Positions 1 through 49,782 of a stretch of 64,000 nucleotides of DNA are shown here, piece after piece. The position numbers were made by a program, and so were the translations under genes. The stretch lies in the NCBI GenBank assembly GCA_008632985.1, contig QPGO01000075.1:250517-314516 (forward strand). The letters run 5' to 3'. Origin of the DNA: Psammoneis japonica (lineage: Eukaryota). The notes beneath the pieces were generated by a model. The model did no database searches. It saw only the letters and a list, made by a program, of their open reading frames with translations, and had not been told where the DNA came from. How positions within the stretch are numbered: position 1 is the stretch's first letter; every line of letters starts with the position of its first letter.

Positions 1-3000
1 CCGCAACAAAGAGGGCTGTTGAGCACTGTTGCATTTGACAGAAATGTGTCGCTGCCCAAAGAACTGACAACTGTCATCCCACACCAACTGAACAAGCTGC
101 CACAGCCTGCTCAAAACATTCTCCTGCACAACAACCTTGATTTTTTCTGTCGCACAACCACACTTTTTTCTTGTTGTTCTTTTTCCACTTGCAGCCACAC
201 CCATCTTTCTTGCACACTAAACCCACAACTTCCCACCAACTCTCACAAAGACAGAAATGATCCTGGTTTTTGTGATCATGACAATTGCACTTCAAACTGT
301 TCTCAATTGCAAGTCATCATGCACTTGCTGGCTTTCTTGAGCTCCAACAGCTGCTGGCAAGCCAGAGTTGGTGGTCAGAGGTGTGGCAAACTGCACTGGG
401 GCAGTTTGCTCTTGCACAGCAGGCTTGCATCTTTTTTGCTTGACCAGAGCCCTTCAGTCATTCTGGCTTTGACCACCTCTTTTTGCTGTGGAAAAGCTCT
501 TTTGCATTTTTCTTTCATTCTCTTCCAACTTTTGCAATGATGTTCATTTTTAATTTTCTCCCTCTTGAATGGCCATGGGTGTTGTTTGCCAAGCATGGCA
601 AAATCAGCATTGATTTTTTATCTGCAACTTCAAGAAAATTGCTGCAGGCACACAGTGGCTGGCTTTGCAAGGCTGCAGACCTCCCCAACTTTGACACACA
701 CAAACAAAGATTTCACATCTCACATGACCCCAAGTCAATGAGGGACAATGCAAGGAACATTGCTGCTCATGATTTCCATTTTAGACAGCAGAGCAGCAAC
801 AGACAGAAAAAACACATGCCAGATGCAAGAAGGTGAGAGCTGCAGCTTCCTCAACCAATGCTGGAGAGAAATCTGGCCCTTCTTGCCTTCAACCCAAACA
901 GAGCCAGTGGGTGCACAAAAAGAGGCAGCTGAGCTGTGGCTTCAACACAGTGTCACCAGCACGTGCAGTTGTCCTTGTGATGAATCTGTGCCAGATCATC
1001 ACAAGTGTCAGTTGTCACAAAGCCATTTTGGCTCCATTTTGCACATCTGCACTTGTGCTGGTGGTGCATCTCATTGTGCCAGCAGTGCCCCAGTTGTTGC
1101 TGCTGATTGCAGCTCTTGGGCTGTCATTGCAATGGAAGAAAAGCTGCAAGCTCTGTTTGGGGCCAGAGGAAGCAGTCATTTGCACAAGGTAAATCAAGGT
1201 GGTGTTTTTGCCAAAAAATGAAAATTGGGTGTGCTGTGCTGTGTCATGTCCATGGGCTCAGCCTTGGGTCCATCAACTCGTGTTTTTTTTCTTCTGTTGT
1301 TGGGCAAAACAGCTGCAAACAAAGGGGCATTTCTCAGTTGTCAATCATCTTCATCACACATGCCTGTTAATTTTCTGACCCACAAAAATGTTTTTTTTAG
1401 CAAGCTTGGTTGGCTGTGCACATGTGTGCATGCAGACGAGCATTGTTGTTTGCTCCACATTGAAGTGTGTCAGTCAATTTGATCTGTGTCTAAAGGAGAC
1501 AGCATTGACTCAAAATCTGTGACATGCAAGAGTTGCTTGTGCGGGGCTTTGGTTGTTCATAAATCAAAAACAACAGCAAGCAAATGTGACTTGAAATTTG
1601 TGGAAAATGAAAGCATGGAGCAGGATGTCTCTTGCTGGGACACATTGTCTCATGCACACACACCTGCCACTTGCCCCTTTTGAGGGCTGGCAAGGCCACA
1701 TGCACAAGGTTGTCAGTGTCCTCTCTCTTGCAAGCTGAGTGAGTGAGAATGGCATGCCAGCTTTTGCACCAAGGCAGCTTGTGAACAGGGCAGCTTCTCA
1801 ACTCTGCAATGTTTTCTGCAAATGTGCTGACAAACAGTGTGCAAAACAACAAAACACACCTGACAGCAGTGCTTCTTTTGGATGACAGGGAAGAAAAACT
1901 TGTGTTGGTCACAAATGAGGGACATTTTGCATTCCCCATGGAGCCTTTTCTCAATGTTGCCCCTTTGTGTGCTGCTGCCATTTCCATTCCGGCGTGCCAC
2001 TCTGTTGGCAGGCACCACATGAATGGGCCAGTTGGCAACACTGTGATGCTCCCTGCCACTCTAGCCAGCTGGGACATGCTCCAGCCTTCGGTGGGATGAT
2101 GCTTTGTGCAATCTTGGGCACACAGAACTGCAGCAAAATTGCTGGGCAATGAACAAGCCAATGGCCAACTTCCAGAATCCCAGCCTTGCACCTGAAGCAA
2201 TCATAATTTCTGGCATGCTCAGCCACTTTGCTCACATGAGGAATCACAAAGTGACTGGCCCAATTGTTTGTTTTTCACCATTTTGATGTGTGGCATGTGG
2301 TGGGGCAAGCAAGCCAAGGAAAGCCAGCCAAGAAGCACACCGGATGCTCCTGCTTTCAATGGGTGAAGAAGATGGGATTGCCCCCTCATGGCTGTGGTGA
2401 GAGCAAACTGAGGGCAAGAAGATTGCACCAGAATTGTCAAAAGATGGGCAAATGAGTGGAAGTGCTGTCAGCTGGAAAGGAGATCAACACAAGGAAGCTG
2501 CGACAATCAGAGGGCAGCCACTTGTTCTGGGGTCATCAAAAACCAGAAAAATGGGCTTGACAGAGCAGGAGAAAGATGACTCTGGTGGGCAAGGGGTCGA
2601 ATTCGGGGCTGTGCCTTTCCCCAGGAGTGTTTGTGGTGCACCTTTTGTTCAAATTTTCATCATTTTCTGCTGAATTGCTGCAGAACTTGTCAACATTTGT
2701 TTGGACCTCTGCCACACCAGGCATTGGCTGGTGTGGGAGAGGGAACACAGAGTGGTGGCAGCAGCAGATGGCCAGAGAAGCTTTCTGGAAATGTGAGTTG
2801 CAGCTTCCTCAGCCATGGCAGGAGCAATGTTGCACACTTGCCTTGGACCCAAACCATGAAAGATTGAGCTCTGTCAGCTTCAACGCTGCTGCAGCACATT
2901 GTCCATCCTTGTGACCCTTTGTCAAGGAAAGATGGGTCACAAATGGTCGTTGCAAAGTCATTTCAGTCCCGTTGTGTTGGTCTCACAAAGTTTGAAGGCC

Positions 3001-3970
3001 ACACAAAGCATGTGGGGCCGGGAAGCAGTCGTTCATGCAATCCTGTGGAAGACAAAGAGAGATCTGCTTTGCTGAATGAGCTCAAGGCACGCATGGCATC
3101 CTCTGACATGCACAAGTTGATCCAAATTGCAGAAACAAAAAGTGTGCAACACTCTGATGCAAATCTTGCACTGTGGCATCATCTCGTCATGACAACTGAT
3201 GCTGCTCCTGAAACAGAGCCATCGACATCCTCTGCTGGTTCTTGCTGCAAGAGCTGGTCCAACAAGTGCTCTCCTTTCAGTTCTGCAAGACTCCAAAAAA
3301 GGGCCAAGGCTGGAAATCAAGTGCTTCCGGTGTTGGCCATTTCTTTGTTGCTGGTGCTGTCCATGATGTTTTTGTTTGCATCCCTGACATCTGACATGTG
3401 ACAGCAAGAATCAGAATCCCCAAGCCATTGTTGCTGGTCTGATCCGTGATGCAACTGTGACAAGTGCCAATGTTTGGTCTGCCCTTTTGGAATTGAATTG
3501 CAGATGCGGCATTGGCATTCACACAATTGTTGGGGCTGGCGCCAACAAGGCAAGGGCAAGGTTGGAGGGGGCAAGGGACAAAGTGACTTGTGCACCTCTT
3601 GAAACAGCAGCAATGCAGAACCCATCCAGCATCTACAAAGGGAATGGGGCTTGCACCAACAGAATTGATCGGCTCCCTGCCTTGCAAGATTGCCAGTGTG
3701 AGTTGCTTTGCCCACAGTTCACTGCCGACAACAGAGCCAGTGTGATTGACGACAACAGAGACATCACAATTGTTGTGGATCTCGATTTGCTTGGACTGCC
3801 TCCCGTGCCTGACATTGTCGACAGCCCAATCTGTCTTTTGGATCCATGGCACCCCCGTGATGTCCTCTGTGCTGCCAGTGTCACTGAGTCATCCAAGGAA
3901 GAGCTTTGGCACTGTGACACCTGTGCCACTGTCCTTCTCCCTGACATGCACCTGCATCCATTGAAGTGCC
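1..3970. other. TpA- and CpG-depleted hypermutated domain I (runs off the left edge; fades out around 3970-4130)
   Basis: Only about a dozen TA dinucleotides seen in ~3.9 kb, and CG is rare. ORF translations are almost Tyr-free and rich in C/H/Q/W. TA and CG return to normal from about 4130. Confidence 0.9.
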
Positions 3971-4323
3971 GGTTAATCAAGTCACACTGTGAAGGAGAAA
4001 ATCCGTCATTGGTTGGGAGTGATGACCAGGATGGGCACTGGACTCAAGGGGACATTATGAGACACTTGACTGATGGGGCTCACGAGGATGAATCTGGAGC
4101 CACGGCTGTCAAATCGTGTTTTGGTGGGATGGCATTGTACAGAGCTCATGTTTGGCTCAGTCCACAGTGTGACTATGGGATGGATTCATCTGCATTTGTT
4201 CGATATGCTAGTGAGGTTGATGGACGGGCTTGTGAGCATATTGTGTTTTACGACTGCCTCGGAAGCCATGGAGCAACATTGGCGATTCAACCCGACCTCG
4301 TCCCACTGTGGAAACGAAATTAA
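3190..4323 (+). pseudogene. CAP59/cryptococcal mannosyltransferase-like glycosyltransferase; 5' two-thirds hypermutated, 3' end intact
   Basis: Hydrophobic anchor VLPVLAISLLLVLSMMFLFASL, then (frameshifted) AIVAGLIRDA, NRIDRL, IVVDLDL, WHCDTCAT (expected form ~WYYDTYA), VKSCFGGMALYR, CEHIVF. Stop/frameshift near 3400. Start position approximate. Confidence 0.65.
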
Positions 4324-7353: not shown

Positions 7354-8094
7354 ATGAATTCTCTCGCTTCATCTCCAACCAGGACCTCGACATCATTTCA
7401 TTCAATGGAAAAGACCGCTAATGAACCGATAGGTCAGAAAAGGTGCCGGAAAAGTACCGCCACCGACCTTTCAGGACGTCTGGAGCATCAGAAAGCTGCT
7501 CTTGCAGAGGCTGAGCGGCCTGTAGAAAAGCTGCGTCATGACATTATCAAGACAGAGGCAGAACTGAGAAAAGCCACATTACTCTCCCCTTCAGAAGCGC
7601 CGGTACAGCATGTGTTGGGGAGTCCGGATGTCGTGGTGAATGAGATCTTTGCGTTTCTCTCCATACCTGACCTCGGGCGTTCTGCCGCTGTCTGTCGCGA
7701 GTGGACAAGTTATGCTCGTAAGGAGCAACTCTGGGAAACTAATGCAATGAAACAGTGGCCGCATACTCCGTCCTCTGCCATATCTAACTTTTACAGCTAT
7801 TGCCGAAGTCAGGTTACACAAAAAACTTTCGAAGGGAACCTCGTTTATCCATATCACAACAAGCAGGTGAATAGCATGTATGCCAACGACGACTAATACA
7901 TTATCTACGTGTTACCGAGTATTATGGAACATACGGAGGATGGACAGCAGAGACCTGTATCTCGATGTGTAAAGTTGGACGAGTCTCTAGAAACTCAACA
8001 TGGTAAACAGGATCTCTTTTTGAGGAATCGATCTGTAACTGCCTCGATCGTTGTACACACAAGTCGGACGTTTTACAACCGCCGCTTGAGTTGA
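7354..8094 (+). pseudogene. F-box protein, copy 1 (in-frame TAA at 7894-7896, 3' part truncated)
   Basis: F-box motif VLGSPDVVVNEIFAFLSIPDLGRSAAVCREW..EQLW. Homology to the paralog at 24138 continues past the stop. Confidence 0.7.
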
Positions 8095-8480
8095 TTTGCA
8101 GCATGGATCTTTTTTCAAACTTCACCTCGCTGCATTTTTGTTGCACCAAGACGCTTGGTTTCCACAATTCTCTACTTCATAGGCTGGAACCGAATCCAAT
8201 ATATGTCGTTACACGAGCGAGTTAGCAAAGCTACAGTACAGATTTTCATTTCGATTCCCTATTATAGTCGTGTATTGATAGGCTTTCACGAGCGAGTTAG
8301 CAACGCTACAGTACAGATTTTCATTTCGATTCCCTATTATAGTCGTGTATTGATAGGCTTTCGTTTCCGTAGCGCGATTTGAGTAGTAGCCCAAAGGACA
8401 ATCCAAGCACATGTTGATGTCACTCGTCAAATCCCAGGAAGACCTCAAGAAACATTGCAAGTGTGAAGGGAATGAACAGG
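8095..8480 (-). pseudogene. Degenerate duplicate of the SWEET 3' end and its downstream region
   Basis: Aligns to ~26080-26410 (tttttcaaacttcacctcg, gagttagcaaagctacagta, catttcgattccct, gcccaaaggacaatccaagcacat, gtcaaatccca). Confidence 0.75.
8212..8361. repeat. 75-bp tandem duplication
   Basis: 8212-8286 and 8287-8361 are identical except aaag/aacg. Confidence 0.95.
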
Positions 8481-8612
8481 CGTCGACCTCGCAGCACTGC
8501 ACAAAGCTAATTATATGACCATGTGGCTAGTTTGCAAGTTAAGTCTTAGAGTAGTTAGAGATTAGTTCTTTATAAGATAGGCTTAACTATCCTTTTCCGG
8601 GGGAGTAGGTGC

Positions 8613-10079
8613 TTAGTTACAAAAATGATTGTTGTTGTTGTTGTTGATAAGTATCGGATGAATCAACCCTTTGTGCTCTTGGAAAGACCTAAAATACTTC
8701 AAAGGAGAGTGGTCGGTCAACGTGCCGAGGCAAGCCAAAAGCGGTCGTCTTTCTTGTAGAGATGCACTCTCCATCACAGTGGCAACAATATTTGATGATG
8801 CAACACTGCGTCGCAACCAAACAATCCTCCCAGCTGGAATGGTCAGAGGGGGGGAGCCATTAATGGGCTTCACCTGACACTTGGTGGCCCGCAACACAGC
8901 TTGCACCATTTCTTCCGGTGCTTCCCCAAAGCCGGTGAGGAGCTTTAATATACCCCAGTGTGACATGGTTTGTTGTTCTTGGTTAATAGCCGCAAGGCAT
9001 TTGCTCACGATGCGCCATTGGTGGAGACTGTCCGAAGTGAAACCATCTTGGCAATTTATGAAGGCAGTGATGTGAGGTTGCAAGTCCTGAACAACGTTAA
9101 CCGGATAAAATGGAGGCACAGGGCCAAAGACCACACATCGGACTGGTCGTTTTACCAGCTTCTTGCGGAGTATCATTATTGTCATAAGGATGGCAGCGGA
9201 ACCTCCCATGGAGTGCCCCGTGAGGATGAGTTCATATCCTTCATCTATGGACGAAAAGTCACCAAACGAAGATGATGTAGTGGCCTTTTTCCAAGTCTCT
9301 CGGGCCAAGTCGGTGATCCCACGGTGTGCCTGGCCACCATAGAATGGGACAGAATCCAGCTGCATGAATCTGAAATAATCTGCAATAGTATGACATCCAC
9401 GTACGACTAAAACAATTTGCCGGTGGTGGTGGTCCAGCACAACAGAATGGCTCATGTAGTCTATGTTCCTTTCATGATCCCAGTTACGTACAACAACATC
9501 TGATTCTTTGACGCCAGTTGCGTCACAGAAAACCTGTATCTGTAGTTGACATCGGCGACCCAGGCAGCATTGGAGTACACTGCCGTGCTGCTTGCTTTGA
9601 GCGGCCGATACGGCTTCCAGCCCCGCCACCATTTCACGCCCATAGATGGCACAAGAGTACTTTAGCATGCGAATAGCCTCCTCCCACGTTCCGGGTGTTT
9701 CATCCGTCAGCGAGGGTAGCTGTTCCAGCTTTGCTTCTGCTTCTGGTGAAAAGTGCAAACGCCTATGAATTCTCGCAAGAATCCGTAAGCTGAAGAGCAC
9801 GTTCCAGTGGAACAGACCGTCCTGCACTTCCTCGTAGCATCCAGAACGAACGGCATAGCTACGGATTCCGCGCCAAATTTCAGCGTTCTTCTCCAGCGCA
9901 ACCTCTTGTTGGAACTGATTCCGGAAGAATCGAAAGAAGAACAGGAGATTACATAGAGCGTGAACGATGTGATCGAGCAAACCAAGCCGGTACAGGAGGC
10001 TCTCGGTAGTTGTCAGGAGGGTTTTGCGGCAGAGCCACGTCGCCGGCAGAAGGATGATGAACAGTGCGAGAAGAGACAT
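8613..10079 (-). CDS. Class 3 lipase / diacylglycerol lipase-like protein
   Basis: 488-aa ORF with IVLVVRG, AHRG, LILTGHSMGG (GxSxG), FGPVPP and C-terminal LTDH; hydrophobic N-terminus. Confidence 0.88.
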   Translation of the reverse strand: MSLLALFIILLPATWLCRKTLLTTTESLLYRLGLLDHIVHALCNLLFFFRFFRNQFQQEVALEKNAEIWRGIRSYAVRSGCYEEVQDGLFHWNVLFSLRILARIHRRLHFSPEAEAKLEQLPSLTDETPGTWEEAIRMLKYSCAIYGREMVAGLEAVSAAQSKQHGSVLQCCLGRRCQLQIQVFCDATGVKESDVVVRNWDHERNIDYMSHSVVLDHHHRQIVLVVRGCHTIADYFRFMQLDSVPFYGGQAHRGITDLARETWKKATTSSSFGDFSSIDEGYELILTGHSMGGSAAILMTIMILRKKLVKRPVRCVVFGPVPPFYPVNVVQDLQPHITAFINCQDGFTSDSLHQWRIVSKCLAAINQEQQTMSHWGILKLLTGFGEAPEEMVQAVLRATKCQVKPINGSPPLTIPAGRIVWLRRSVASSNIVATVMESASLQERRPLLACLGTLTDHSPLKYFRSFQEHKGLIHPILINNNNNNHFCN

Positions 10080-10572
10080 TAATCACGTAAAGGGCTTCCC
10101 AGAGTTGATGGCGGTGAAGAGAGACGAGACAGTACGACGACGAAGGCGCGAACCATCATCTGGAACACGCCGTAATATGTTGACTGAAGTGATGATATCG
10201 ATTAAGACACAACTGCTTTGTGATACCGTAGATAGAAGATCGAAGGTCACAGTCAAAGACAAGCCTCGAAAAATTTGAACATGCTAAGGTTAGTCATGTA
10301 TGACGGCGCAATTTTTCGATTTTTTTGAAAAAATGATCGGACTAAATCAGCACTATTCACACATTGATATGTTAATAACTGAAATTACATAACTAAGTCT
10401 GAATATATATATTTTCACAAAGAATTTTCGTGGTTGCGCTGGTTTCGTGTTGCGCCACTTTTTATCTTTTTTATCGTGGAGACTCCATGCATTCTCCAAT
10501 CATTCTATCGGTACCGACCGTGACTTCTCATCATTTATAATTTATAACACAGTTGGATAGTGGCAGCGCGTC

Positions 10573-11400
10573 ATGTCCACCACCACCGCTCATGACGAAC
10601 GCTTTGTGCTGACGGAATGGGAACGCGCTCGCGTCCGGGATCTCAAAGACGAATGCGACAGGCAAGGGGTCGCCCACCGTTCGCTGTTTGAGCTTGCCAA
10701 GTACGTCCTCGTTGTCCAATCGAGCGTCAAGGGACACACCGAAGAGAATGAGAAAAGGAGGCTCTCGCTTGCCTTTGAACGAATCAAGGCTCGACGCGAT
10801 TGGGAAAGAAAAGTGGGAGTTGACAAAATTGACGCCGACAAGGCCCTCCGGAAATGCCCCGAGGTGGCGCCAGGCTTTTTGATTTTCGACTTCGACACCG
10901 ATCTGGAGGGTCGCAACATTATAGCATTTTCAAAGCTCCACACCAATGCCGAGTTCGTCAAAGAGCACAAGGCAGAGTCGTATGCAGCCATGCTTCACTT
11001 GTACGACCTGGCCGTCGCTGACATGTCCGTGGCACGTCGAGGCATTGCGGTAGCCGCGATGGCTCCCGAGGAGAAACAGCAAGACGAGAATATGCCCCCC
11101 AAAACGGGAACCTTGAGTTATGTTCGTTCCATGCTTGCCTTGAAGGACTTGCTGAAGCCCATTCACAATGCAAAAATCAAGTGCATATATTCCGTCGCCC
11201 CCCCTGCTTTGCGTGTTCTGTTTCAGGTGATCCTCAATATTCTTCCGCGAAAGTTGCGCGACCGTCTACAAACTTTTCCCAAGCAGGCTGATCTGGAAAA
11301 GAAGCTCCGTCGCTCCAGAAAGCAGAATCGAACATTGGAGGAATGGATTGCCGAGCAAACAGCCATTTACAATGAGACTGAGGAGAAACTGTCATTGTAA
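10573..11400 (+). CDS. CRAL-TRIO/Sec14-like hypothetical protein
   Basis: 275-aa ORF with normal codon usage; FELAKY..A..RI, DLEGRNI, ARRGI, P..IK..Y..PP..L..ILPRKLRDRL resemble diatom CRAL-TRIO-like proteins. Confidence 0.6.
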   Translation: MSTTTAHDERFVLTEWERARVRDLKDECDRQGVAHRSLFELAKYVLVVQSSVKGHTEENEKRRLSLAFERIKARRDWERKVGVDKIDADKALRKCPEVAPGFLIFDFDTDLEGRNIIAFSKLHTNAEFVKEHKAESYAAMLHLYDLAVADMSVARRGIAVAAMAPEEKQQDENMPPKTGTLSYVRSMLALKDLLKPIHNAKIKCIYSVAPPALRVLFQVILNILPRKLRDRLQTFPKQADLEKKLRRSRKQNRTLEEWIAEQTAIYNETEEKLSL

Positions 11401-11544
11401 ATGGTGCTTTCAGTGTTAGAGGTATTGGAAGGAGCTTTTCAGACGTTCCTTACTTGCAAATGGTGGTTTCAGAGATTTAGGTTGCAGAAGGAGGTTTCTA
11501 TGATGCTTTCCACCTTCAATGAAGATGCTACCACGAGATATGCA

Positions 11545-12790
11545 CATGTATGTACGATTTGAGTCACTGATTCTTGGCTTGATCTGCATGATGAAGGCGT
11601 GGAGTACAGTACTTATTATAACGCACATGACTCCAGCCTATGATAAGGCATGTCTAAATCAATTCCTCGAAATGGCTGGAGTTCAATTGCATTGGTGGAT
11701 TTTTTTAATTTCTGGAAGCCTGTGCGTCAGTGACCTGGTTCTCTCTTTTAAGCTGTAGTGGAGTAAAAAGTGCTATCAGTAGTTTTTCGAAGAGTTCCTG
11801 GATACGAGGTGCTGTGATGCTTTAGTTCGTCAAATTTTACCTTGCTGCATTTATCGAAGGTACGCCCGGTAGTAATAAAGACACCTGACATCCTCAATTC
11901 TTCACTTAGTCTAGGTTGAAACCGAACCCAGCAATTGCCTTTACATGAGTGAGTTAACAAAGCTACAGTGTGATCAAATGATTTCCATTTCGATTCCCTG
12001 CCAGTCGTGTGTTTGTAGAGCTTTTCCATCGCCATGACGCAATTTGAGTAGAACTTGTGCTGGCCCAAAGGACAATCAAAGAACATTTGGCTGACAAATG
12101 TTGATGTCATTCATGTCAAATCCCAAGACAGACCACAAGAAACAATTCATCAAAGTTGCAAGCGCCAAGGGAAGTGGAAGAATCATCCCAGCAACACTGC
12201 ACAAAGCTGATCGCATGCCCATGTGGCTGGCTTGCAAGGAAAGTTTAGAGAGTGGTCAGAGGTTTGTTCTGTGAAAGGTCAGCTTGTCTCTCTTTTCCTG
12301 TGGCTGTTGTTGCCTTGTTGCAAAAATGATTCCTGTTCTTTTTGTTCAAAGATGTTGGATGAAGGAGCACTGCTGTCTGCATGTCTGTTGTGGCTGCTCT
12401 CATTGGAAAGACCCAAATGCTTCAAAGGAGAGTGGTCAGTCAACATGCCAAGGCAAAGCAATGTCAGTCATCTTTCTTGTAGAGTTGCACTCTCCATTGC
12501 AGTGGCAACAATCTTTGACAATGCAACACTGCATTGCAACCCAAACAATCCTCCCAAAACACAGCTTGGGCACTGCACTGTTTCCACTGGCACTTCCCCA
12601 AAGCCAGTGAGGAGCTTGACCACACACCCCAGTGTGACATGGTTTGTTGTTCTTGATCAACAGCTGGAGGGCATTTGCTCATGACATGTTGTCAGCATGC
12701 ATTGTCCAAAGTGAAACCACATTGGCCATTTGTGAAGAGAAGATGGTGACAGGTTTCAAGTCTGGAGCAATGCCAGTTGGATGAAATGGA
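11545..12790. pseudogene. Mosaic duplicate: tail of ORF 25659-26081 + SWEET 3' end + lipase 3' end, increasingly hypermutated rightwards
   Basis: 11550-11700 aligns to 25935-26080; 11945-12180 to 26176-26413; 12190-12790 to ~8490-9130. Confidence 0.8.
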
Positions 12791-13499
12791 GGCACAGAGT
12801 CAAAAACCACACATCAGGCTTGCAATCTCACAAGCGCTTCTCACACATGTCAGAGGCCACAATGTGGTGGAGGTTTTTGCTCTCCTTCACAAGCTCTTTT
12901 ACATTCATTTGCCAGCCAAAGGCACAATTCCCAGCAACAGTGTTTTGCACAGTGCATTTGCATTTCATGTTTCCATTTTGGTCTTAATTGGCTTTTCTGG
13001 AAAATGACTGCTCCAAGCACATTTGCTTTTTTGCTGTGCTTTCCATTGGATTTGTTCAATTGAATTTGGTTTTGGCTTTGTCTCCCCCCCCCCCTCATGT
13101 GCCTGTGTCATTGGCACACATGTGGTGCTTCACCATGTGACATGCTGCACCTTGTTGCCCCAGCACACACCATGCACCCACATTGCCTCTTGCTTTCCCA
13201 GATTTGCACACCACCTTGCTTGCCCTGTGGTGTTTTTAGCTTTTTTTTTTCATGAGCAATTTTTTGCACATGCAACCGCATTGTCCTTGTTGTCCGAGAG
13301 ACAACATCATCCATGTCACTTTGGGAGAACTTGGTGGTGGAGCTGCAAATCTGGGCTTTGCACTGGGCAAAATGGGGAGGTGGAGGCTGGTCTGGCTGGG
13401 CTCCTTGCCTGCTCATAGATGGGTGGATGCAACAAACCACTGGTGTCACTTGAGGCCATGAAATTTAGCAGGGCACTTCAGAGCTGCCCATGAAAGAAG

Positions 13500-14050
13500 G
13501 TGACTCAGTGAGTGTGCCATGACATGTGGCATCAATGGATTGTCATTGCACGTGTTGTTCTGCTCACATTTTCATTTTGCCTGTCATGTTTTCAGCATGG
13601 ACATCTGGGACTGCAAGTGCAGAAAGCAGCCCTTCCATGCCAATGCTCTGCATGACACAAGTTCTTTGACAACAGTTGTTCATTTGGGAAATCATGTTGT
13701 GGATCTTTCAGCATCCAGCAGTTGGGTCTGAACAGGTGTGAGTGATGGATGTGCTGTGCCGGCAAAGTGTGTCTGTGCATGATTCACCATTGCAAATGAT
13801 GGCTGACCAATCTTGCCAATTGATGGAGAGAAAACTTTTCCACCAATTGACGTGGCATCAGCCAGCCATGCACAAAAGCAATGTGGTTGTTGAAGATGGC
13901 ACCTGGGCAAGTGCAAAGTCTCAGTTGCTTCAGGATGGACTCTCCAGAGAGTGTTGCTGCTCCAGATCAGAACTTGGCACAAAAGGCAAGTGGCGATTGA
14001 GAAGTTTCACATCACACATCCCCTTTTGGCACTGAGACCAAACCAGCACC
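13500..14050 (+). mobile_element. Possible decayed DDE transposase fragment
   Basis: GVSDGCAVPAK (~13735) then, frameshifted, PAMHKSNVVVEDG..AK: loosely the SDGCxxQYK...HxK...DG pattern of some eukaryotic DNA transposases. Heavily degraded. Confidence 0.3.
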
Positions 14051-17000
14051 CATTGTTCTTCTTGACCAGCTTGTGGGCAACTCTTTGTGCTGGAGGACAA
14101 CACATGTGAAACAACAGCTTTCAGTGCTGCAAGGTGACACCATCAGATTCCAGTTCATGTGAATCCAAAGCAACCTGAAGCTTTTGAGTCCTGGGGAGTT
14201 GGGCACATGCGTTGTCATCACTGAGACAGAGATTGCAAGCAAGCTCAGCCAAGTGACCTGCCATCACCAATTTCTTAGACCAAAGAGTCTTGCCAAGAAC
14301 TTTAGACTCAGAGTTGTTTTCCATTTGAGTTGAACATTGCCAAACTGTTTGTGAAAAATGTCAATGGCAGCAAACAAATTAAGAAGAGTGTGTCATTGGC
14401 ATTTTGGTTGGATTTGAGGAAACAGGAGTGGGCTGGAAGGGAAGGTGCACGTGCCTTTGTGCAGGCACAAATTCATCAACAGCTCACCACCAGCAAAGGC
14501 CATGGCAAAAATGCCATGGCAGAAGAAAAAGAAGGGTGCATCTGCCGCTGATGAGCTGCTCCCAAGTCCAAGGGTGGTGGTGGCATTGGAGCAGATGGGA
14601 GCAAGTGGAGGGCTCCAGTCTCTCAAGAAAGAAGTGGAGGAGGTGGCTTGGAAAGTGCTGTTTCCAAAAGCAAGTTCCTCACTGAGGCAGACACATGTCA
14701 AGCAGTGGAAAGGTTTCATGGTCAATGCATGAGAACACAGCTGGCAAATTCAGCAAGCAAGGCTGGGTGGAAAAGTGGAAAGACTGGGCAAAAAGAAGTG
14801 CGTTCTAAATGCAATCAACACAAAAAGGAACACCTGCACAACTGGGCCAAAAGAGGTTGAGAATGATGCTGCTGACACATCCAAAGTCATGTTGACAGAA
14901 GAACAATCTCAGGAAATGCTTGGGCAGAATCACAGTGGTGGGGTCCCAGCAAAAGAAAAAGGAGAAAGAACACAAGGAAAAAAGGCAAGAAGAAGAAGAG
15001 GGCTGAGCCCATTGAAGTGCCATTTGTGCCAACTTGGGGGACAGGACTGTCAAAAACCATTGTGGGTGAGAAATGGAAAAAAGTGTGGGTGTGGTTGTGT
15101 GACAATGCACTGAAATTTTCCAAGAGCACTGTGGTGTGCAGAAAGATGGTGGAGTCAGGACACAGTGCAAGGATGTGGAGCTGACTGCAGCAAGTGACAA
15201 GGCTCTGGGGCTGTCAACATGTTGGAAAACTGCTGCTGGAGCATTTGGAAATGCAAGGCAAGGAAGGAACAGAAGATTCAACAGGGAGATGCAGACAACG
15301 ACAAGGGAGAGAATGAGAAACCACCACAGCACAACAATCCACACAAGCCTGGCAAAACGTTGGGAATTGCAGGGAGATGCAGGAATGGAGCAATTGAAGA
15401 AGCTGCATGATGAGGTGAAGAAAGACAGGGCAAGGGATGCAGGGGTGCAGTTCAACACAGGGCACATCAACAACAAGAAGGGACAAAGCAGCTGGAAGGG
15501 CAAAAGTGTCACAACCAAGATAAAAATGGCCCAGAAGGCAGCAAAAAGCAAGCAACACTTGAGCTGTCTAGAAAGACAACAAGGACAATGCAGAAGACAA
15601 AAAAGACAAAACTGTGAAGAAGAAAACCTGAGTGATGATGATGAGGGAGACACAAACAAAACTGCAATCTGGCACAGGAAGCACCTCTTTGCTGCCATGC
15701 ATTTGCTTGCAGCAACAGCTGACAGCAAAAGCAGCAAATCAGCAAATCATTGACACTCATTTGAAGCACGCATTGCATCAGTGTCTTAAAACACAAAAAA
15801 TTAAATGAGATGTTTTGAATGCCATGATTTTGGTTCACAGATTTTGCAGGGGTGGAGGGTGAGCAACCTTGCAGGGATGAACCATGGTTGTTTCACAGCA
15901 ACTCAAGTTTTCCTCACCATGTGGAGGGGGGCAGGAGAACTCCCACAGCGTGGAAACTTTTGTCTGTCACATTCAACAAGGGTTCAACATGTGCACAACC
16001 AGCCAACTGTCATGGCACAATCTTTCAACAATGTGATGGTTGGATGATTGCTGCTCTGAGACAGGCCCAGGCAGACTCTGTTGCCTCAATGTGTGCTCAG
16101 ATGCAGCACATCACAGCTGTCATGCGGATGACAGCAGAGCCTTCCACAGAGTGTGCATTCTTGGTCTGGGACAGAAAGTCACCGCTGGACAAAGATCATG
16201 TGGTGACTTTCTTCTGGGTCTCTTGAGCCAAGCTGGCAAGCTGTTCTTTTGTCCCAAACATGCACATCCACACAATTTTGGAATTTTGGCATTTTTTTCT
16301 GGGCAAACCTGCTGGCTGCCACAAACACAACATCAGCTGTGGATGGCAAAAGCAAGAAGAGTGGCAGCTGTTTCTTGGTGTCTGGTCACCACAGCATCAC
16401 AGGGGGACTTTCCTTGTTGTCCACATCAGGTCACACAAGTTGGAAATGAAATGGAAGAGCAACTTGAGAACTTGTCTTTTGCAGTGAATGCCATCCCTCA
16501 TCCTGAAGAGCCACTGGACAACTCTTGTTTGATGATGACAAATTTGCAGTGGATGCCCCCCCCCCCCCCCCCCCAGAGGCATCAGATGACTTTCAGATGA
16601 CAAAAAAGTCAGCAATTTTGCTGCTGGTTGTCTCAAGAAAAAAGCAACGTGTCCACAACACCCATGAGGAATGAACAGCAGCATTGGCAGTTGGCAGCTT
16701 TTTTTCATGTGGATCCAGCAGAGCACAGGGACAACAACTGCATCAAGTGGTGGCTCAGCTGTCAGCTGTTTCTTGTGATGGCAGCATGACAAAGACAACT
16801 TTGGGCAAGTCTGATGAGCACAACATGTGTGTGTTTCCTTTTTTCAGGGGTTTCATGCAACCTGTGAGCAAGCACACCTGGTGTTGCCAGAAGGCAACAC
16901 TCTCCCACATTTGCTGCCTTCTTCTTCATTGGAGCAAGGCTCTTTGCATTTTGGCCACTCCTTGACACACAAAGGTTGAGAAAGACAGCCTCAAGCAGAC

Positions 17001-17439
17001 TTGATGTGCTGCATGAAAATCTTCATTGCAAGTCAGCCTGACAAAGTCACCCCCAAGCACAGCTGTTCAAGGCCAAACATTTTTGACATTTGCTGCAATC
17101 AGCAGTCAGTGCCCCAATTGAAGAGAAGCACCTGCCATTCCAAGTGACTCAAAGTTCATTGCACCAGATGAATCATGACTTTTAATGACACAGCAACAGG
17201 GCTGCTGCTTTTTGACTGCTCTGCTGAAACAAAGCAACTCTTTTGCACCCGACCCTCCTGTGATGAAGGTGTGCAGCACACACAACCACATGACAGGCAA
17301 ATGAGAGTCGGCAACAAGGAGCCAGCAGAAGCAAAACAGTGGAGGCTCTTGTTGTTGATGGAGCACCACAAATGGGCCCACATCTGCATGTGTCGACAAA
17401 GTGCACTTTTGCTGTTTGGCCATCAGAGGAGACCAGTGG

Positions 17440-17630
17440 TTGACAACACACAAAATGCTTGCAAGGGCCTCAATGCACGAGACATGGGGGAAGCAGCTGT
17501 GGCAACCTGACAGACATGTGTGCTGTTGTCAAGTGTTTGACAAAGCACAATGCTTGCAAGGGCTTCAATGCATGAGACATGGGAAGCAGCTGTGGTGGTG
17601 ACCTGGCAGACATGTGTGCAGTTGTCAATG
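17440..17630. repeat. Two imperfect ~95-bp tandem copies
   Basis: aatgcttgcaagggc[c/t]tcaatgca[c/t]gagacatggg..aagcagctgtgg..acctg[a/g]cagacatgtgtgc[t/a]gttgtcaa occurs twice. Confidence 0.8.
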
Positions 17631-20600
17631 AATGGACTCAGCTGCAATTGGCCATTTTTGAAGGATGATTTTCTCAAGATCCAAAATCTGTGATGTTTTG
17701 CAATGTTTTGAGGGGCATCCATGACTGAAGCCTGCACTGTCCCATCAAAACTTTGCAGCACCCACACCCAGCAGCAGCATCTCAGATTGGTCCGCACAAT
17801 GACAATGCCTGTGCGTGCAGCACCTGTGACCTCTTCTTGTCACACAAGGAGAAAAAGCAATGTGTTTGCAGCTGGGGTCCAAAGTGCCATGAGATCCAAG
17901 AGAGCATTTGTGCTTGAGCCAAAGTGGGCAAAGATGAGCCTTGTTCTGGGCAATTTGTGCATCTGCAACTTGGAGGAGGCAAGCTGAAGAAAGCAGAGAA
18001 ATGGAAAGAGAAGCAGCACTGGTGAACCTTGGAATGTCTTGTGATGCGCAATTGACAACTTCTTGGTTCAGATTCTTGTTGCAAGTTGTCATTGGACCAT
18101 CAGTCAACTGTGCTCTTTTGATGGTGGCAAGAAACCATCTGCACCCCTGCCCTCAGTGCTGACAATGACAGCTCTCAAGGAGGTGGGTCAACTGTTGGCA
18201 CTTTGTGAAGAAGAGTTCTGATGAGGCATGTTTTTGCTGTCCTGGTGTGCCAATGAAGTCATTGTTGACAAAGATGAGGAAGTTGCCATGCAGCATGTGC
18301 AACCAAACACTGGACAAGCACAAGGCATTTGCAAAGCTGAAGGGTGACCAAGAGAGATTCAGCCAACTTGCTCTTGGCATTTTTTTTCAATGATGGAAAA
18401 ACATTGCATGATGACAAAGAAAACAAGACTTCAAAAGCACAATGCAGTCAGAAACAATTAAAGAGAAAGCTCAAGATGCATGCCAGGAGATGTCCCTGCT
18501 GAAACAAAGCAACTGGATGAGCACACACAGGAAGTGCAAAAAGCTGAAGCATCCAATGCCAGTGCAGCTGAGCCTTCATTTGATGGCTGCAATGTTGAAG
18601 ACTTTGCTGCAGATTTTCTCAATTCAAATTCTGCCACTTGTTGTCAACTTGCACCACCCAAATGGTTCATGCTGCTGACAATTCAACAGCTTGCAAGGGA
18701 CACATTTGGGCTTCACAGTTTCAAGGAGATGAAACATTGCATCTCCTGCTTCTTTGTTGATGCACCACTTCTTGTTTCTGAAATCCATTTTGATGGAAAT
18801 GGAAGAAAACTAAAATGTGATGCAACCAATCCAATGAAATTTGAACAGCTGCTGATTGTGGAGCACGTCATGCAGTGCCGCCCAGTGTGAAAGATTGCCA
18901 GAGCTGCTTTTGGCATGTCACATTGATGTCCAGTGAAGAGACATGTTAAAAATGGGCACCACAGTTCTTTTGATTCTCCTGATGCTGCACGATCGCTTTG
19001 ATGGAAGTGTTGGACAGGTTTGCTGAAAGGCTGCTTGACTTGGCAGCTTTTCTTTTTGACAGAAAAGACACTCCTGCAGAAACAAGGTGCAAAGACAATG
19101 CTGCAGGTTCCACACAAGCCAGCTTAAAAAAGCACTGTTTGTCAAGTGCAGTTTGTGAACTTTGTCACAGCATGCGCACTCTCACATGAGCACAATTGGG
19201 TGCACAGAGCTTGAGTGGATGAGGACAAATTGGCAGCATTGACTGGTGAGTGCAGAGAAGAGACACCAGTGCAATGGTGAAAGACCATGCTGTGCATGAC
19301 CTGCACTGCAGTGTGCCAAAGCACATTGGACAGCACTTGATGATTTGGAAGTTGGAGATTGGCTCAGTGCTTTGGTTGAATCAATTGATCCAGTGAAGTT
19401 AGATGGCAAAAAGGAAAATGGCACAATGAACCACATTTGGGTTGGAGCTGTTGAACATTCTCAAGAGTCTGGAAACAGCCTCATCAACCACACAAGCACA
19501 CACAGCCAAGATGTTGAATGCTCTGAAGAGTTTGACAGCAATGACTCTTGCAGCACTGGTCATGAGTTCAACTGGACAGAGACATGAGTGTTGGCTGGGG
19601 TGAAAAAGAATTCTTGCAACAACATCCTCTGCAGAATTCAGCAACCCTGACAGCAATGGTGAGGAGTTTCAAAGTGTGAGCACGTTCTTCTTGAGTGCAA
19701 ACAATGGCTCAACAAAAGAACTGAGAGAGTTGAAAAAGTAAAAAAGCTCAAAGATGCCAAAGTTGACAAGGTTGTGCTGCTTGTCTGTGAAGACCAGGCC
19801 TTGCAAAAAGCTCAAAATGAAAAGGTGCTGGCTTGCTCACTGCAAAATGATCCACATGCAGAGTCATTTCTTCAGCAACTTGAGCTGTTTGAGAGGCTCC
19901 CCAAGCTGCATGACTTGAAGGCCAACCCCGCCAGCAAAGCATGGCAAGTGCCTGCTTTGAAATGACAAAAGAGCATTGCTGGGATCTTCTCTGCTGGATT
20001 TGAAGCAAACTGACTCAGCCACACTGCAAAATGTGCAACCCAGAGTCACCTCTGGAAGTCCACTTGTGCCTGCACAAAATCCTGCCAAACAGCTTGGCGA
20101 CAAAGGTTTTGAGAAGGCAGAGCACCATTTTCTGCATTTCAATTGAGCACATGTGCCTCAAGTCTTGCAGCTGTGAACAGCCAGACAATGCAACACAAGC
20201 TTGAACTTTGACTTGGAGACAAGAAGGACATTTGCAGGGTGTGGCACCCAAGGAAGTGACTTTTTCTCAGTTCATTGCTGTGAATGGTCTCAGTGATGAC
20301 ATCTGATGCAATGATTTTACCAGTGCTGTTCCATGCATGTGGGAATGGGGCAGTCAGAAATGAACCTTGGCTTGCCACTCTGGTGGTCATGGGCTGACAG
20401 CAGTCTTCTTCCTCTCATCTGTTGGAACTGAGAATTGAGCAATGACTGAAAACAGTTGTCCACATTTTTTGGAGCTGGTTCATCTGTGGTGGTCACTTTC
20501 TGTTTCTTGCTGCTGTGCTTTGCTTTCTCTTGCACCACCATTGGTTCCGTCAAGAGTGTCACTTTGTCAATTGGAGATGGGGGCATTGTTTTTCAAAAGT

Positions 20601-20639
20601 GTCTCTGTTGGCATGATGCTGCATTTGGCAGAACATGAA

Positions 20640-22420
20640 AAGTGCTGCAAGAGGAGCATGTGCAAACACACTGCTTGTCCATTGTGGCATCAAGAGTGGC
20701 ATGAAAAAGGGTGTGACAAAAATTGTTTTGCATTGGTGTTGAAGCCCAAGCACAGCATGTGTGACCTTCTTGTGTCTTTTTTTGCTCCGCTGATTGCAGA
20801 TTTGATGACACTGCTTCTGTCTTCATGGATGGAATGCAACAAAGTTTGAACAGCCACACCAAACTGCCCTTGGCAAGCATCTTTTGCAGATGCAAAAGTT
20901 CATTGCAGCACTGGGCAAACTGCCACCTTGCTGCAGCAAAAAACCTCATTCAAGGTCATGTTCATTGCCTTTTTGGTGGAATTTCTTAACCAAACTTGGA
21001 AGCATTGAATCAAGCTCCACACAATCACAACAACAACTGTGGTCCCAACCCGTGGTTTTGTTTGCCAGCATCACAACCTTGTGAACCATCCATTTTCCAA
21101 TTTGCAGTGAGATTTTCTCCAGCTCTGGGGCTTTTTTTGTTGACATTGATCTTCTCACAGCCAACTCCAATTCCAACTGATCACCAGCAACAGGGCAGCT
21201 GAGTTGAACAGACATGACCCCAACACTGCAACACATGAGTTTGCACACATGGAATGGGCATGGCTTTGAAATCAAGCCAAGCACACAAAGGGGTGGCTCC
21301 TTCCCAACAAATTGCTCATTGTTGGATGCACTGCACAAAGGGGCCAAAAATTTCTTGCTCAATGGCTCACCTTTTTAAAAAGGCTCAATGACCCTTCAAA
21401 CTGCCATGACATCCAGCAGTCTGTGACAGCATCAGAGAATGACTCAACAGGGTTGAAGCCAACGACACTTCCCCAAGACAAAATGTGACAGTCTCCTGCA
21501 TTTCCTTCCAGTGGATTCAGTCAAACAAGATCATCATTTTTGTCAAGGACTGGGCAGTGCATGAACAGCACCACAGACTTGTCAAAGTTCTCAGTGCACA
21601 GTGCAGCCCACTGTGGGTTTGCAGCCTGTTGAAATGCTTTCTTGATTGCTTTTGCTGCAGTGTGTCTCCACCAGACCAATCTGTGCCAGCCAGCCTTGAA
21701 AGAATGCTCTTGAAGATTCTTTGAAACCCCATGTTTTTCATTTGCATTGGCTGCAGTCTGAGCCAAGAAGATTTGTCATTGCCATCCAGTGTTTGAAGTC
21801 ATGAGCACTGATGGGACAACTGGCAGGCAACAAGTCCTCCTTTCACACACTTTCCATGCACCAAACTGTGTGTCAACCTCAGAACAAACAACTTTGCCCC
21901 CCTGGAATGACAGCATCACCTTCTTTGTCCATCACAACACCATCAGTGCAACCATCTGCCTTCATTTTGACAAGTTGGTGCTCAGCCTCATGCGCACCAT
22001 GAGTTCACTCTGGACTCCATTGCACCAAGCACAGGTGCCACACTGGCAATTGATTGACACCTGGCAAAGTGTTGCACAGATCCCTTGCTCTTTGCAATGA
22101 TTGGTGTTGGTCAACCTCAGCAATGATGTTGCTGGCTTTGCCTTTCTGCGTGCACTTGTCCACCCATGCCTCTGCTTTTTAATCTTGTTGTTTTGTGCAG
22201 CCCTTGCTGCGCTCTTTGCTGGATGCCTTGCCCCATCAAAAACACAAAAGGAGACACCCCAGCTGAGACAAGCTTGTGGTGCACACAGACTTGACAGCTC
22301 CCAACAAACTCTTTGGCAGCTGTGGTGGCTGTGACAGGAGATGCTGCATTTGTGCAGGCACACCGATGTGTTGATCCCAGCTCTTTTTGGACTGGCCTCA
22401 ACAAGTGATGCAAACTGCAC
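20640..22420 (-). pseudogene. Decayed XPG/FEN1/EXO1-family nuclease followed by a SWIM-like Zn finger (probably TE-borne)
   Basis: In order on the minus strand, across frameshifts: GINTSVCLHK (22349-22378), FCVFDGARHPAK (22214-22249), GAHEAEHQLVKM..DG..DGVV..GDAVI.GG (~22000-21890), LLGSDC (21753-21770, H3TH LLGxDY), PFSCHS*CHNGQAVCLHML (20655-20713). Confidence 0.65.
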
Positions 22421-24137
22421 TTTGTTGACATTGCCAAGGGCTTTGGCCCATGGGTCACCAATTTCTGTTGGAGGGCATTTGTCCCACAATTTTGGGAAGC
22501 TGCTCCTGGTGTTGGTCTTGCTGAACTCCCTGCACCCAGTCTTCAGCCAGAAAGGAGCAACTGACCGGATCTTCTCAGATGCTTTGGACATTGTTGAGGT
22601 CATTTTTTCTGTGCTGTTTGACCCCTCATCTTCTGGCTGACAGGCTCCACAATCATCACATCAATGTCCCAGGCACCGGCAAGAGAGGCTCATGTTGTGG
22701 CTTGTTGTTTCCCTGCCTTTTGTTGGTGACAGGAGTCACTCTGTCCCGTGTCATGCATCCAAGCTTTTGGTTTCTCAAGAAACTTGCAAATGCTGTCTCA
22801 GAGACTCCAGTGCTGTCTGCACTTGGTCTCTTCAATTGCTTTGGCTGGTGCGCCAAACAATGGTCGAGGAAGTGTCACCTGCCTCACAATTGTTGAACCC
22901 TTTCATCCAGCCACACAGCTCACGAGCTTTGCTGGATGTGCTTGGAACAATTCCAGCAGTGCAAAGTCAAGAACAAGCAACCCTTGAGGCATTTCAAGGC
23001 ATCTCCTTCATTTCAGATTGGGCGCGAGTCATGTTTCATGCAGTGTTCTTGAGTGGTTTGGACGAAATGGCAAATGGCCCATGTTGCTCCGGCCGCTGAT
23101 GCCAGCAACCATGAGGATGGTGCAGCACACATGTGAAAGCCCATTGACTGGTGGCACCTTGCTCCAGAGCATGAAGGGCCCCACTGGTGCTGCAAAGAGC
23201 CCACAATCACAGGCTGTCCATGACCAATTGCAGCATTCCAAAATGTGTTTGTTCTGTTGATCATGTGCAACAGCTTTGAGCTTTTCAAAGTCCAACCAGC
23301 TGGCAAGCCATGATGTGGAATCACTGTTTTCTCTCTGCGTGCAGTGGCAGAATTCTTTTCAATGTCCCCAACACATCCAGAGCACAGCCACATCATTTTC
23401 TTGGTCTTCAACCCTCGCAGATTTTCTGCCAGAGAGAGAGCTCAAGTCTCATGACACATCTCTTGAACATCAACACCAGCAGGTGGATGGCCAAAGCCAA
23501 AGCAATTCATTCCAGCCTCTTCAAAAGCAGCCTCAGCCAACACAATGAAAGAGGTGGCAATGAGGTCAACAAGCAACGAGTCTTCCCCTGGAGATCCCAT
23601 GTGTGGAACGAGAGCAAGATCCATTGAGGGTGACGTTGACTGGGCCTTCTGCAGTGCTGCCTTTTTTACCAGAAGATGCTCCCAGCCACCTTGCTCGTGC
23701 AACATTTGCAACTTCACATGATTGATGCTTGTAAAACATGTGGATGCATGACCAAGCTGTTGCAAAGCAGAGTCTGCACCCCGGTGCTTCCTGGCCCTTT
23801 TCTGCTGCGAGCAGCACCAAGCAAAAGCAACAAACTTCTCTCTAGAAAAGAGGGAAAGAGGGGGATGGAGAGAGGGCATGAAGCACAAGTGGAGTGCTTT
23901 AGAAAAGGAACAGGTCAAGATTTCAAGACTTGAGAATGTCCATGAATTCATCATGTGCCGAAGCCATGCCAACGAAAATGATTGCTGTGTTGAAATAAAA
24001 TGACGCATCCTGCCGGGCGAAAGACAGGTGGTGCGATGCTGACCGGCGCACGCAGCATCATGCCGCCCATGATGGTGTCACAGTTTATCGCGTTGCTGCA
24101 TCATCATCGTCCCTGAACAACAGCACGGCATCATGTC

Positions 24138-26081: not shown

Positions 26082-26235
26082 TGGATCGTTTTTCAAACTT
26101 CACCTCGATATTTATTGCACCAAGACACTTGATTCCTCAATTCTCTATATACTGTAGGTTGCACTGAATGCAATACATGGGTGAGTTAGCAAAGCTACAG
26201 TATAATCAAATAATGATTTCCATTTCGATTCCCTA

Positions 26236-49683: not shown

Positions 49684-49782
49684 AGTAAGTACTTGTAGGT
49701 GTCGCTAGCTAGCTACTAGAGAGGGACTGTCGAGGTCAAAAGATAGCCATACAGTCCGCTACTAGTAGACTAAGTTGTTTAT

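Follow-up and report, generated by a model that had tools for sequence, protein, structure and literature searches.

The dinucleotide TA is nearly gone from four discrete tracts of a 64,000-nucleotide stretch of Psammoneis japonica DNA (contig QPGO01000075.1, positions 250,517 to 314,516 of the forward strand; hereafter the window), and we examined the direction, context, and limits of its loss, above all in the tract designated domain II, whose left edge passes through duplicated pieces of a SWEET transporter gene and a lipase gene. Natural hypermutation of DNA from A:T to G:C is almost unknown, the precedent being one 2026 preprint on an unrelated alga. In mutation-accumulation lines of Bigelowiella natans, 231 new mutations were reported in two integrated viral regions (Mettrop et al., bioRxiv 2026, 10.64898/2026.01.13.699255). 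All but one were A>G/T>C changes (210/211 and 20/20), all are stated to lie on TpA, and the targets were integrated giant-virus and virophage DNA. The process is described in the same source as ongoing and episodic, with a rate raised about 1000-fold, and adenine deamination is proposed, the enzyme not being identified (10.64898/2026.01.13.699255). The one further literature candidate, PMC9258296, proved irrelevant. Full-text searches found the Bigelowiella preprint as the only description of a TpA signature and found nothing for diatoms.

Other systems share parts of the pattern. Repeat-induced point mutation (RIP) of Neurospora and other ascomycetes converts C to T at CpA and so makes TpA, is triggered by duplication, hits both copies, and depends on RID/DIM-2 cytosine methyltransferase homologues. 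Like RIP, the process at the present locus is a hypermutation by transitions at particular dinucleotides, local in extent, which destroys gene copies and spares their neighbors. ADAR hyper-editing produces A>G changes in repeat-derived double-stranded RNA with a preference for a 5' U; unlike that RNA-level process, here the DNA itself was changed, in part of a continuous genomic homology block. In diatoms, 5-methylcytosine (5mC) marks transposons, and loss of DNMT5a in Phaeodactylum depletes methylation and de-represses young transposons (PMC9998398). The CpG decay of methylated repeats shares the CG>TG/CA half of the signature of the tract cores but leaves unexplained the loss of TA and the zones in which TA alone was lost and CG kept.

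The locus is like that of Bigelowiella in showing only A>G/T>C changes, only TpA to TpG/CpA, in local tracts with the remaining genome untouched; in a mutated tract that outreaches the annotated foreign DNA (there by about 21 kb, on the mutation rate); and in long-term depletion of TpA with enrichment of CpA and TpG. It differs in belonging to another supergroup (the label of a stramenopile, diatom-like genome was taken from gene content); in near-saturation, the observed/expected ratio (o/e) of TA being about 0.05 compared with a Rho of 0.45 in the Bigelowiella viral region; in an erasure of CpG that is coupled yet spatially separable, of which the preprint reports none; in the rewriting of duplicated host genes up to a base-sharp edge; and in an extended preference, ATA/TAT being converted most and TTA/TAA least. 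The mutations there were caught in real time, whereas those described here were inferred from the copies within one assembly. What the locus adds is a set of matched before-and-after copies of ordinary genes that fix the direction, together with an aim by place rather than by repeat recognition, the sharpness of the stop, the separation from CpG decay, and a first extended motif, constraints that serve the search for the enzyme and for the mark that recruits it. We consider the tracts best explained by a position-aimed A:T>G:C mutator acting at TpA, combined with decay of probably methylated CpG, both ending in TG/CA (probability roughly 0.7). The evidence that carries this explanation consists of the direction and context of the changes, their action in place, the sharp edge, the independence from duplication, and the mass balance.

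Loss of TA and CG from discrete tracts

Tract limits were obtained from change-point fits in which TA and CG were fitted separately. TA was nearly gone from all four tracts (I-IV, also called domains), and CG was nearly gone from three of them. Inside the tracts, the per-kilobase TA o/e was 0.00-0.09, the CG o/e was 0.05-0.27, and the values for TG and CA were 1.5-2.1, in comparison to a TA o/e of 0.4-1.0 and a CG o/e of 0.6-1.4 in the rest of the window; the loss was confined to the tracts, and the neighboring DNA was normal. For domain II, the change points were at 12050 (support 11965-12105) and 24955 for TA and at 12040 and 23955 for CG. At three edges the TA footprint exceeded the CpG-depleted core by 0.2 to 1.0 kb. 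TA-only zones were present over ~0.2 kb on the left and ~1 kb on the right of domain II, over 0.7 kb on the left of domain IV, and over all of domain III, and they retained CG at 42 per kb compared with 57 in normal DNA. On the right of domain IV, the change points for TA (58315) and CG (58305) coincided.

Losses and gains were balanced in the three cores. The deficits of TA (37.7 per kb) and CG (50.6 per kb) summed to 88.3 per kb, and the surplus of TG plus CA was 87.4 per kb; TG and CA were present at 114.4 and 114.3 per kb, respectively, and CG at 6.0 per kb versus 56.6 in normal DNA. CG>TG/CA conversion was found in tracts that carry the TG/CA surplus. The second-order shifts of the cores (AT -12, GC +13.5, TC -16, TT +15, GA -15, and AA +9) match conversions in ATA/TAT, GTA/TAC, and TCG/CGA. 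The balance and the shifts both argue that the core was once ordinary DNA. Were the cores instead foreign DNA, viral or other, that was already poor in TA and CG on arrival, only the host bases at the edges would have been mutated later. Such an origin is in keeping with the lack of an unmutated comparator in the window, and of a family match, for most of the core; against it, the mass balance (88.3 versus 87.4 per kb) and the second-order shifts fit conversion of host-like DNA, a piece of the host lipase 4.2 kb inside domain II shows the same changes, and the edge pieces show the process to have been active at that domain. We regard a foreign, TA-poor core as highly improbable. Pfam searches of 145 open reading frames (ORFs) of at least 80 amino acids (aa) from the four domains returned no family (Dynein_light, E 0.004, was below the cut-off), nor did a six-frame read-through of 12816-24103 with X at stops (DUF2459, E 0.036, below the cut-off). 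The pieces of domain II identifiable so far are host gene copies. Two tandem repeat arrays were detected in the whole window, none of them within the domains.

Direction and context of the changes

Three related gene copies, A, B, and C, were defined by self-comparison of the window plus alignments, and copy B straddles the left edge of domain II (Table 1). The reading frames of the unmutated copies are open and are matched in Pfam by Lipase_3 and MtN3_slv. In copy C, MtN3_slv matched both exons of the SWEET gene (26236-26799 and the upstream ORF 26787-27296), and 83 bases of the form CT..AC (26720-26802), which are skipped in a transcript-like contig of run X2, correspond to a minus-strand intron. 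The SWEET tail of copy A (8130-8515) carries a 75-bp tandem duplication (8212-8362). The two unmutated blocks of copy B are separated by a 170-bp insert found in B only, TA density is normal up to 11964, and tblastn showed stops and frameshifts in the lipase part. B (11878-12179) and C (26122-26414) are 84.6% identical, the other copy pairs 71-73%, and the junction between SWEET tail and lipase is common to A and B and absent from C.

Counts are given filtered and unfiltered, the latter from a recount with MAFFT. In the SWEET tail inside the domain (11965-12179), 9 of the 11 TA of copy C were converted in copy B (7 to TG and 2 to CA), two were kept (12016 and 12049), and none was altered otherwise or in reverse; the MAFFT recount without filter gave the same 9/2. 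The preliminary description of this DNA had listed about nine TA conversions here, and all of the listed substitutions were present. One of the five CG was converted and four were kept. Outside the domain, none of six TA was converted in the filtered alignment (5 kept, 1 other); in the unfiltered one, 2 of 15 TA were converted (11 kept, 2 other, 2 reverse), and 3 of 7 CG were converted with 3 kept. The leftmost fragment (11534-11706), which had been called barely touched, does retain six of its eight TA, with one converted. An excess of TA-context transitions in the copy at 12 kb, on which the earlier reading depended, was borne out by the comparison of 9/11 converted TA inside with 0/6 outside (p = 0.0023), and per base the transitions numbered 9/22 in TA context compared with 1/174 in the background (p = 5e-9). 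In the TA-only zones, represented by the SWEET tail and the F-box copy, the excess over background agrees with A>G/T>C mutation restricted to TpA. The reported destruction of the stop codon was traced to CTA>CCA at C 26236-26238, which is TAG>TGG (Trp) on the coding strand, and the tail of copy B further carries one Tyr>Cys and one Tyr>His replacement.

Deeper in the domain, the lipase copy had been said to show changes at both TA and CG, and the strings quoted in support align as claimed. Between 12180 and 12815 (A>B, unfiltered), 17 TA became TG/CA, 1 was kept, 13 were altered otherwise, and none was reversed, while 18 of 20 CG became TG/CA, none was kept, and 2 were altered otherwise. The filtered counts were 12 TA converted, 2 kept, and 0 reverse, and 12 CG converted with 1 kept. 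A second piece of the same lipase copy was recovered at 16109-16240. It matched the lipase by tblastn (22 of 50 residues identical, E 0.001 against a database of 11.5 kb) on the same strand and in the same order as 12180-12815, aligned over 162 bases at 69% nucleotide identity, showing two TA>TG and four CG>TG/CA changes, and gave a purine/pyrimidine local score of 78, compared with a maximum of 57 for shuffled sequences of a longer query. To the right of 16240, no further lipase copy B was detected by this score (44, within the shuffles, whose maximum was 57). The location of the second piece indicates that 12816-16108 is an insertion into lipase copy B (codons 303/316) and that host-derived sequence extends at least 4.2 kb into domain II. 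This 3.3-kb insertion, itself without a family match, contains a purine-rich stretch, the AT skew reaching 0.31 between 14 and 16 kb.

The direction of change was determined by three-way comparison. The third copy had been said to keep TA at several of the converted sites, and copy A has the state of C at seven of the nine (at five of these in both of its tandem sub-copies), the state of B at one, and a gap at one. Seven of eight informative sites were derived in B. The 21 differences between C and B over B 11941-12179 include 9 in TA of C, and of 13 changes polarized to the B branch, 7 were TA>TG/CA, TA context accounting for 22 of about 215 bases (p = 1e-4). The polarity would flip only if A and C were sisters, against which stand the position of B and C as the closest pair (84.6% versus 71-73%) and the lipase junction shared by A and B. 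Tyr462 of the lipase, invariant in 6/6 aligned proteins (the window's own and five database relatives, 25-47% identity), became His in copy B via TA>TG at 12418. On the basis of three-way parsimony, Tyr462, and the intact reference ORFs, the domain copies are derived and lost TA, and deeper in also CG, in place, in agreement with the earlier proposal. The opposite polarity, in which a RIP-like CpA/TpG>TpA process struck the outside copies and the domain copies are ancestral, takes what plausibility it has from the symmetry of TA versus TG/CA differences in any pairwise comparison. The seven of eight three-way sites and the invariant Tyr462 exclude it, the outside copies are open with Pfam matches whereas RIP would make stops, and the ancestral genes would have needed a TA o/e of about 0.05; its chance is close to nil. 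RIP was also rejected for the direction of the changes in the mutated copies, in which 0 TG/CA>TA changes were counted versus 42-52 TA>TG/CA.

A second matched pair came from the right side of domain II, where F-box copy C was compared with copy A 7402-8102. In the filtered alignment 21 TA became TG/CA, 5 were kept, 3 were altered otherwise, and 0 were reversed (unfiltered 26, 6, 4, and 0, respectively), and for CG, 24 were kept, 9 were lost, and 2 were reversed. The 21 TA>TG/CA changes compare with 18 background transitions in 483 sites, at a background divergence of 6.0%. The outcomes were nearly equal (TG 10, CA 11) and fell into 11 runs versus 11.5 expected, and no strand-coordinated clusters of TG versus CA were seen in the F-box copy (all by hand count); the balance and the run count indicate that both strands were struck at random. 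The F-box stop codon TAA of copy A (7894-7896) is CAA in copy C, so that an ORF of 181 aa becomes one of 294 aa. Erasure of TAA and TAG stops opens long false ORFs that can mislead gene prediction; for annotation, such tracts both conceal dead gene copies and yield these false frames. The ORF of the F-box copy (24117-25001) runs into the neighboring transposon.

The sites that escaped point to an extended substrate preference. Where TA survives in the core of domain II or IV (36 TA, 72 half-sites), the preceding base was T in 65% and A in 3%, in comparison to 21% and 27%, respectively, before TA in normal DNA; for all four tracts (73 sites) the values were 53% and 8%. The flanks of TG within the tracts do not account for this context. 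In the paired copies, the A was mutated in 28/46 cases when followed by a pyrimidine versus 13/36 when followed by a purine (p = 0.045). Together, survivors and pairs indicate that ATA/TAT is converted most readily and TTA/TAA least. About 82% of TA was gone at 4.6-6.0% background divergence; by arithmetic from the F-box loss and the background divergence, the TpA rate was raised at least some 30-fold per base.

Table 1. Tracts, gene copies, and other features of the window.
Feature	Position	Strand	Description
Tract I	TA-poor 1-4135		CG-poor to 4430
Tract II	TA-poor 11965/12050-24955		CG-poor about 12040-23955
Tract III	TA-poor 36275-38765		No CG loss
Tract IV	TA-poor 54085-58315		CG-poor 54815-58305
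Domain II	11965-24935		TA o/e 0.00-0.08, CG o/e 0.05-0.25 per kb; CG nearly absent about 12200-23955
Copy A	7402-10082		F-box gene, SWEET-tail fragment, open lipase ORF 8613-10082 (minus, 488 aa); unmutated reference
Copy B	11534-12815		Straddles left edge of domain II; flank and SWEET tail as C, then lipase as A
Copy B, unmutated part	11534-11964		Two blocks: 11534-11706 (homologous to 25917-26092) and 11878-11964 (homologous to 26122-26199)
Copy B, SWEET C-terminal fragment	11965-12179	minus	TA-only shoulder inside domain II
Copy B, lipase 3' flank and C-terminal pseudogene piece	12180-12815	minus	aa 316-489 (174 codons) of intact lipase; TA and CG both erased
Copy B, second lipase piece	16109-16240	minus	aa 255-303, GHSMGG region; 3.3 kb deeper
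Right TA-only shoulder	23955-24935	plus	Contains F-box copy C 24153-24851 (ORF 24117-25001)
Copy C	24153-26800		F-box gene and SWEET gene
Copy C, last SWEET exon and 3' flank	26122-26799	minus	Unmutated reference
720-bp element	24936-25655		13-nt terminal inverted repeats; high copy, present/absent polymorphic, exactly at right TA edge
Control duplicate D	49177-53992		LRR genes; unmutated partner of 58296-63018, 92% identity
Control duplicate E	58296-63018		Left end is right edge of domain IV (change points 58315, 58305)

Edges and targeting

The preliminary description had the intensity of change grading over a few hundred bases from the left edge of domain II. For TA this did not hold: the last kept sites are at 11955 and 11964 and the first converted ones at 11969 and 11971, giving a 5-base step between 11964 and 11969 without a gradient, after which 9/11 were converted. 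The remark is right only in so far as the loss of CG begins about 200 bp further in. CG was kept at 4/5 sites in 11965-12179, 0/4 in 12180-12330, and 0/16 from 12331 on; the conversion to TG/CA was 1/5 in the shoulder compared with 16/16 from 12331 (filtered 1/5 versus 9/9, p = 0.005). Homology continues unbroken across the TA edge (block 11878-12179, corresponding to 26122-26414), and the sequence was therefore changed in the chromosome rather than imported with a copied or reverse-transcribed piece. Pure kinetics, with TA fast and CG slow, was rejected as the sole cause of the TA-only zones. A constant rate predicts about 44% CG conversion, compared with the 16/16 observed (p about 2e-6), and the account fails because CG loss leaps from about a quarter (1/5 and 9/35) to all of the sites while the background divergence merely doubles.

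No dedicated mutator would be needed if TpA and CpG were intrinsically fragile, their lesions being badly or biasedly repaired in compact, untranscribed chromatin, so that the tract just decays faster. CpG decay in methylated DNA is of this passive kind, the tracts lack genes recognizable by Pfam, and TA is under-represented already in the normal DNA of the window (o/e 0.4-0.7). Passive decay is hard to reconcile, however, with the loss of about 82% of TA at low background divergence and with a 5-base edge, with outcomes that are solely transitions to G:C, opposite to the usual GC>AT bias, or with the extended sequence preference around TA. In addition, the Bigelowiella process was on in only 11/15 lines and is regarded by its authors as regulated (10.64898/2026.01.13.699255). 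We judge passive decay quite unlikely, and we infer that a dedicated enzyme carries out the TpA conversion.

As a control for the role of duplication, the D/E pair (4.8 kb) was compared in the same way. It had 127 TA kept, with 23 changes in the D>E direction versus 13 in the E>D direction (p = 0.13), and 202 CG kept, with 23 versus 22 changes in the two directions, at a background divergence of 4.7%, like that of the mutated pairs. This pair being unmutated, duplication itself is not the trigger, and the 720-bp element, although present in many copies, likewise has normal TA. In each mutated pair only the tract-resident copy was affected, and the sister copies a few kilobases away were intact. 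RIP was thus rejected also for its trigger, the D/E pair being unmutated and copies A and C being intact where B is mutated. D and E form a direct duplication whose inner ends lie within about 100 bp of the edges of domain IV, so that the tract exactly fills the spacer.

The tract was also recovered in contigs built from exact 31-letter words of sequencing run X1. These contigs, with a word depth of 55-80, reproduced domain II, and a 3804-base contig spanned its left edge (8333-12136) with five differences. The X1 contigs differed from the window at six sites inside the domain, none in TA context. X1 depth in the domain was close to that of the flanks, indicating that the domain is essentially single copy. 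The word depth of 334 at 13004-13670, compared with about 60-80 around it, marks the sole part of the domain II core that is seemingly repeated. The transcript-like X2 gave no cover over 11670-23675, which says nothing on silence. Miscalls at modified bases are typically A>G and C>T, and an artefact of base calling or assembly could be envisaged in which modified bases (5mC, 6-methyladenine) in tracts that are probably methylated were misread as T or G by a signal-based sequencer. Noisy reads, on the other hand, would hardly yield exact-word contigs at depth 55-80 that reproduce both tract and edge, every site is consistently TG or CA, and the same copies bear indels, frameshifts, and 5-11% other divergence. 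An artefact on this scale is barely credible.

Proposed mechanism and neighboring features

Domain II would be a chromosomal tract under two context-specific mutation processes that share TG/CA as end product. The first would be a powerful A:T>G:C mutator that is limited to TpA and strikes both strands equally often; the second, decay of CpG to TpG/CpA, would most simply be deamination of 5mC in a methylated core. The tract would be set by position and not by sequence likeness, the spare SWEET and lipase copies and the F-box copy having been rewritten in place. The footprint of the TpA process is wider than that of CpG decay; the process acts alone in domain III and stops within a few bases. 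Whatever entered lipase copy B may have seeded a silent-chromatin domain, and the TpA mutator may track a mark that extends beyond cytosine methylation.

Several observations weigh against this explanation in part. The right edge of domain I has the order reversed, the CG change point (4430) lying outside that of TA (4135), with partial CG depletion. On its right side, the TA limit of domain II falls where the F-box homology block ends and where the 720-bp element is inserted, and this edge by itself is no proof of positional targeting. The edges of domain IV lie within about 100 bp of the ends of D and E, and that tract could be sequence-defined. The core has no family match, which makes silenced foreign or transposon DNA an assumption. 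X1 may be the assembly's source sample (its library type is unrecorded), and its agreement with the window is not an independent confirmation. Finally, TA is self-complementary, so that deamination of A and chemistry directed at T are indistinguishable from sequence.

The last point leaves room for a mutator with the same targeting that acts on thymine, the T of TpA being modified, for example, to 5-hydroxymethyluracil by a TET/JBP-type enzyme and then mispairing with G to give T>C. 5-Hydroxymethyluracil prefers TpA in dinoflagellate DNA, and since TpA>CpA and TpA>TpG are mirror images, all of our counts fit this chemistry equally. The sole published proposal for the signature is deamination of A (10.64898/2026.01.13.699255), and we consider thymine chemistry rather unlikely. 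Our tentative preference is for a TadA/ADAT2-like deaminase that would be recruited to silent chromatin and turn adenine in DNA into hypoxanthine, as put forward for Bigelowiella. In the natural tRNA substrate of ADAT2-type enzymes, U33 precedes the edited A34, which fits the TpA preference. More speculatively, stramenopile algae might possess a chromatin-guided TpA adenine deaminase (best at ATA/TAT and GTA/TAC) that works across silenced tracts as a genome defense opposite to RIP, independent of duplication, base-sharp in its limits, spreading over resident host genes, and both wider than and distinct from CpG methylation. If shared with Rhizaria, it could represent an ancient immunity across the SAR group (stramenopiles, alveolates, and Rhizaria) and a natural editor of adenine in double-stranded DNA; we hold this whole reading to be rather doubtful. 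For the base-editing field, a natural enzyme that edits adenine in chromosomal DNA would be of interest.

The 720-bp element at the right TA edge had a word depth up to 6556 compared with about 55-70 in its flanks, and it was absent from some X1 and X2 contigs, in which 24935 is joined to 25656. Its TA and CG content is normal despite the adjoining TA-free zone, and it is therefore probably a young, active, non-autonomous transposon that entered after the mutation or is spared by it. A 1180-base X2 contig matches F-box copy A (7465-7993; 39 differences) and then 24755-24935 and 25656-25967 of copy C without the element. It is either a further paralogue or a divergent allele, and a possible extra outgroup for the F-box comparison.

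The window as a whole is eukaryotic, with long ORFs, few introns, and a GC content of 47% (44-53% per kilobase). Its genes encode a class-3 lipase, a SWEET transporter, and F-box, LRR, SNF2, and helicase-associated (HA)-domain proteins, of which HA-domain proteins are abundant in diatoms. The diatom-like label was drawn from the scarcity of introns, the GC content, and the HA-domain ORF. In domain III (36275-38765), where TA was lost and CG retained at about 40 per kb, a 196-aa ORF (38021-38608, minus strand) contains 1 Tyr compared with 9 Cys and 6 His by hand count. A full HMMER search with this ORF gave eight weak matches, the best with E 8.5e-6 and none at 1e-10 or better, and one of the eight relatives has a Pfam family, located in another part of the protein. 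The ORF looks like a recently overrun gene of an uncharacterized family. Just to the left of domain III, 35401-35600 shows the opposite compositional extreme, with 31 TA in 200 bases and very scarce TG/CA.

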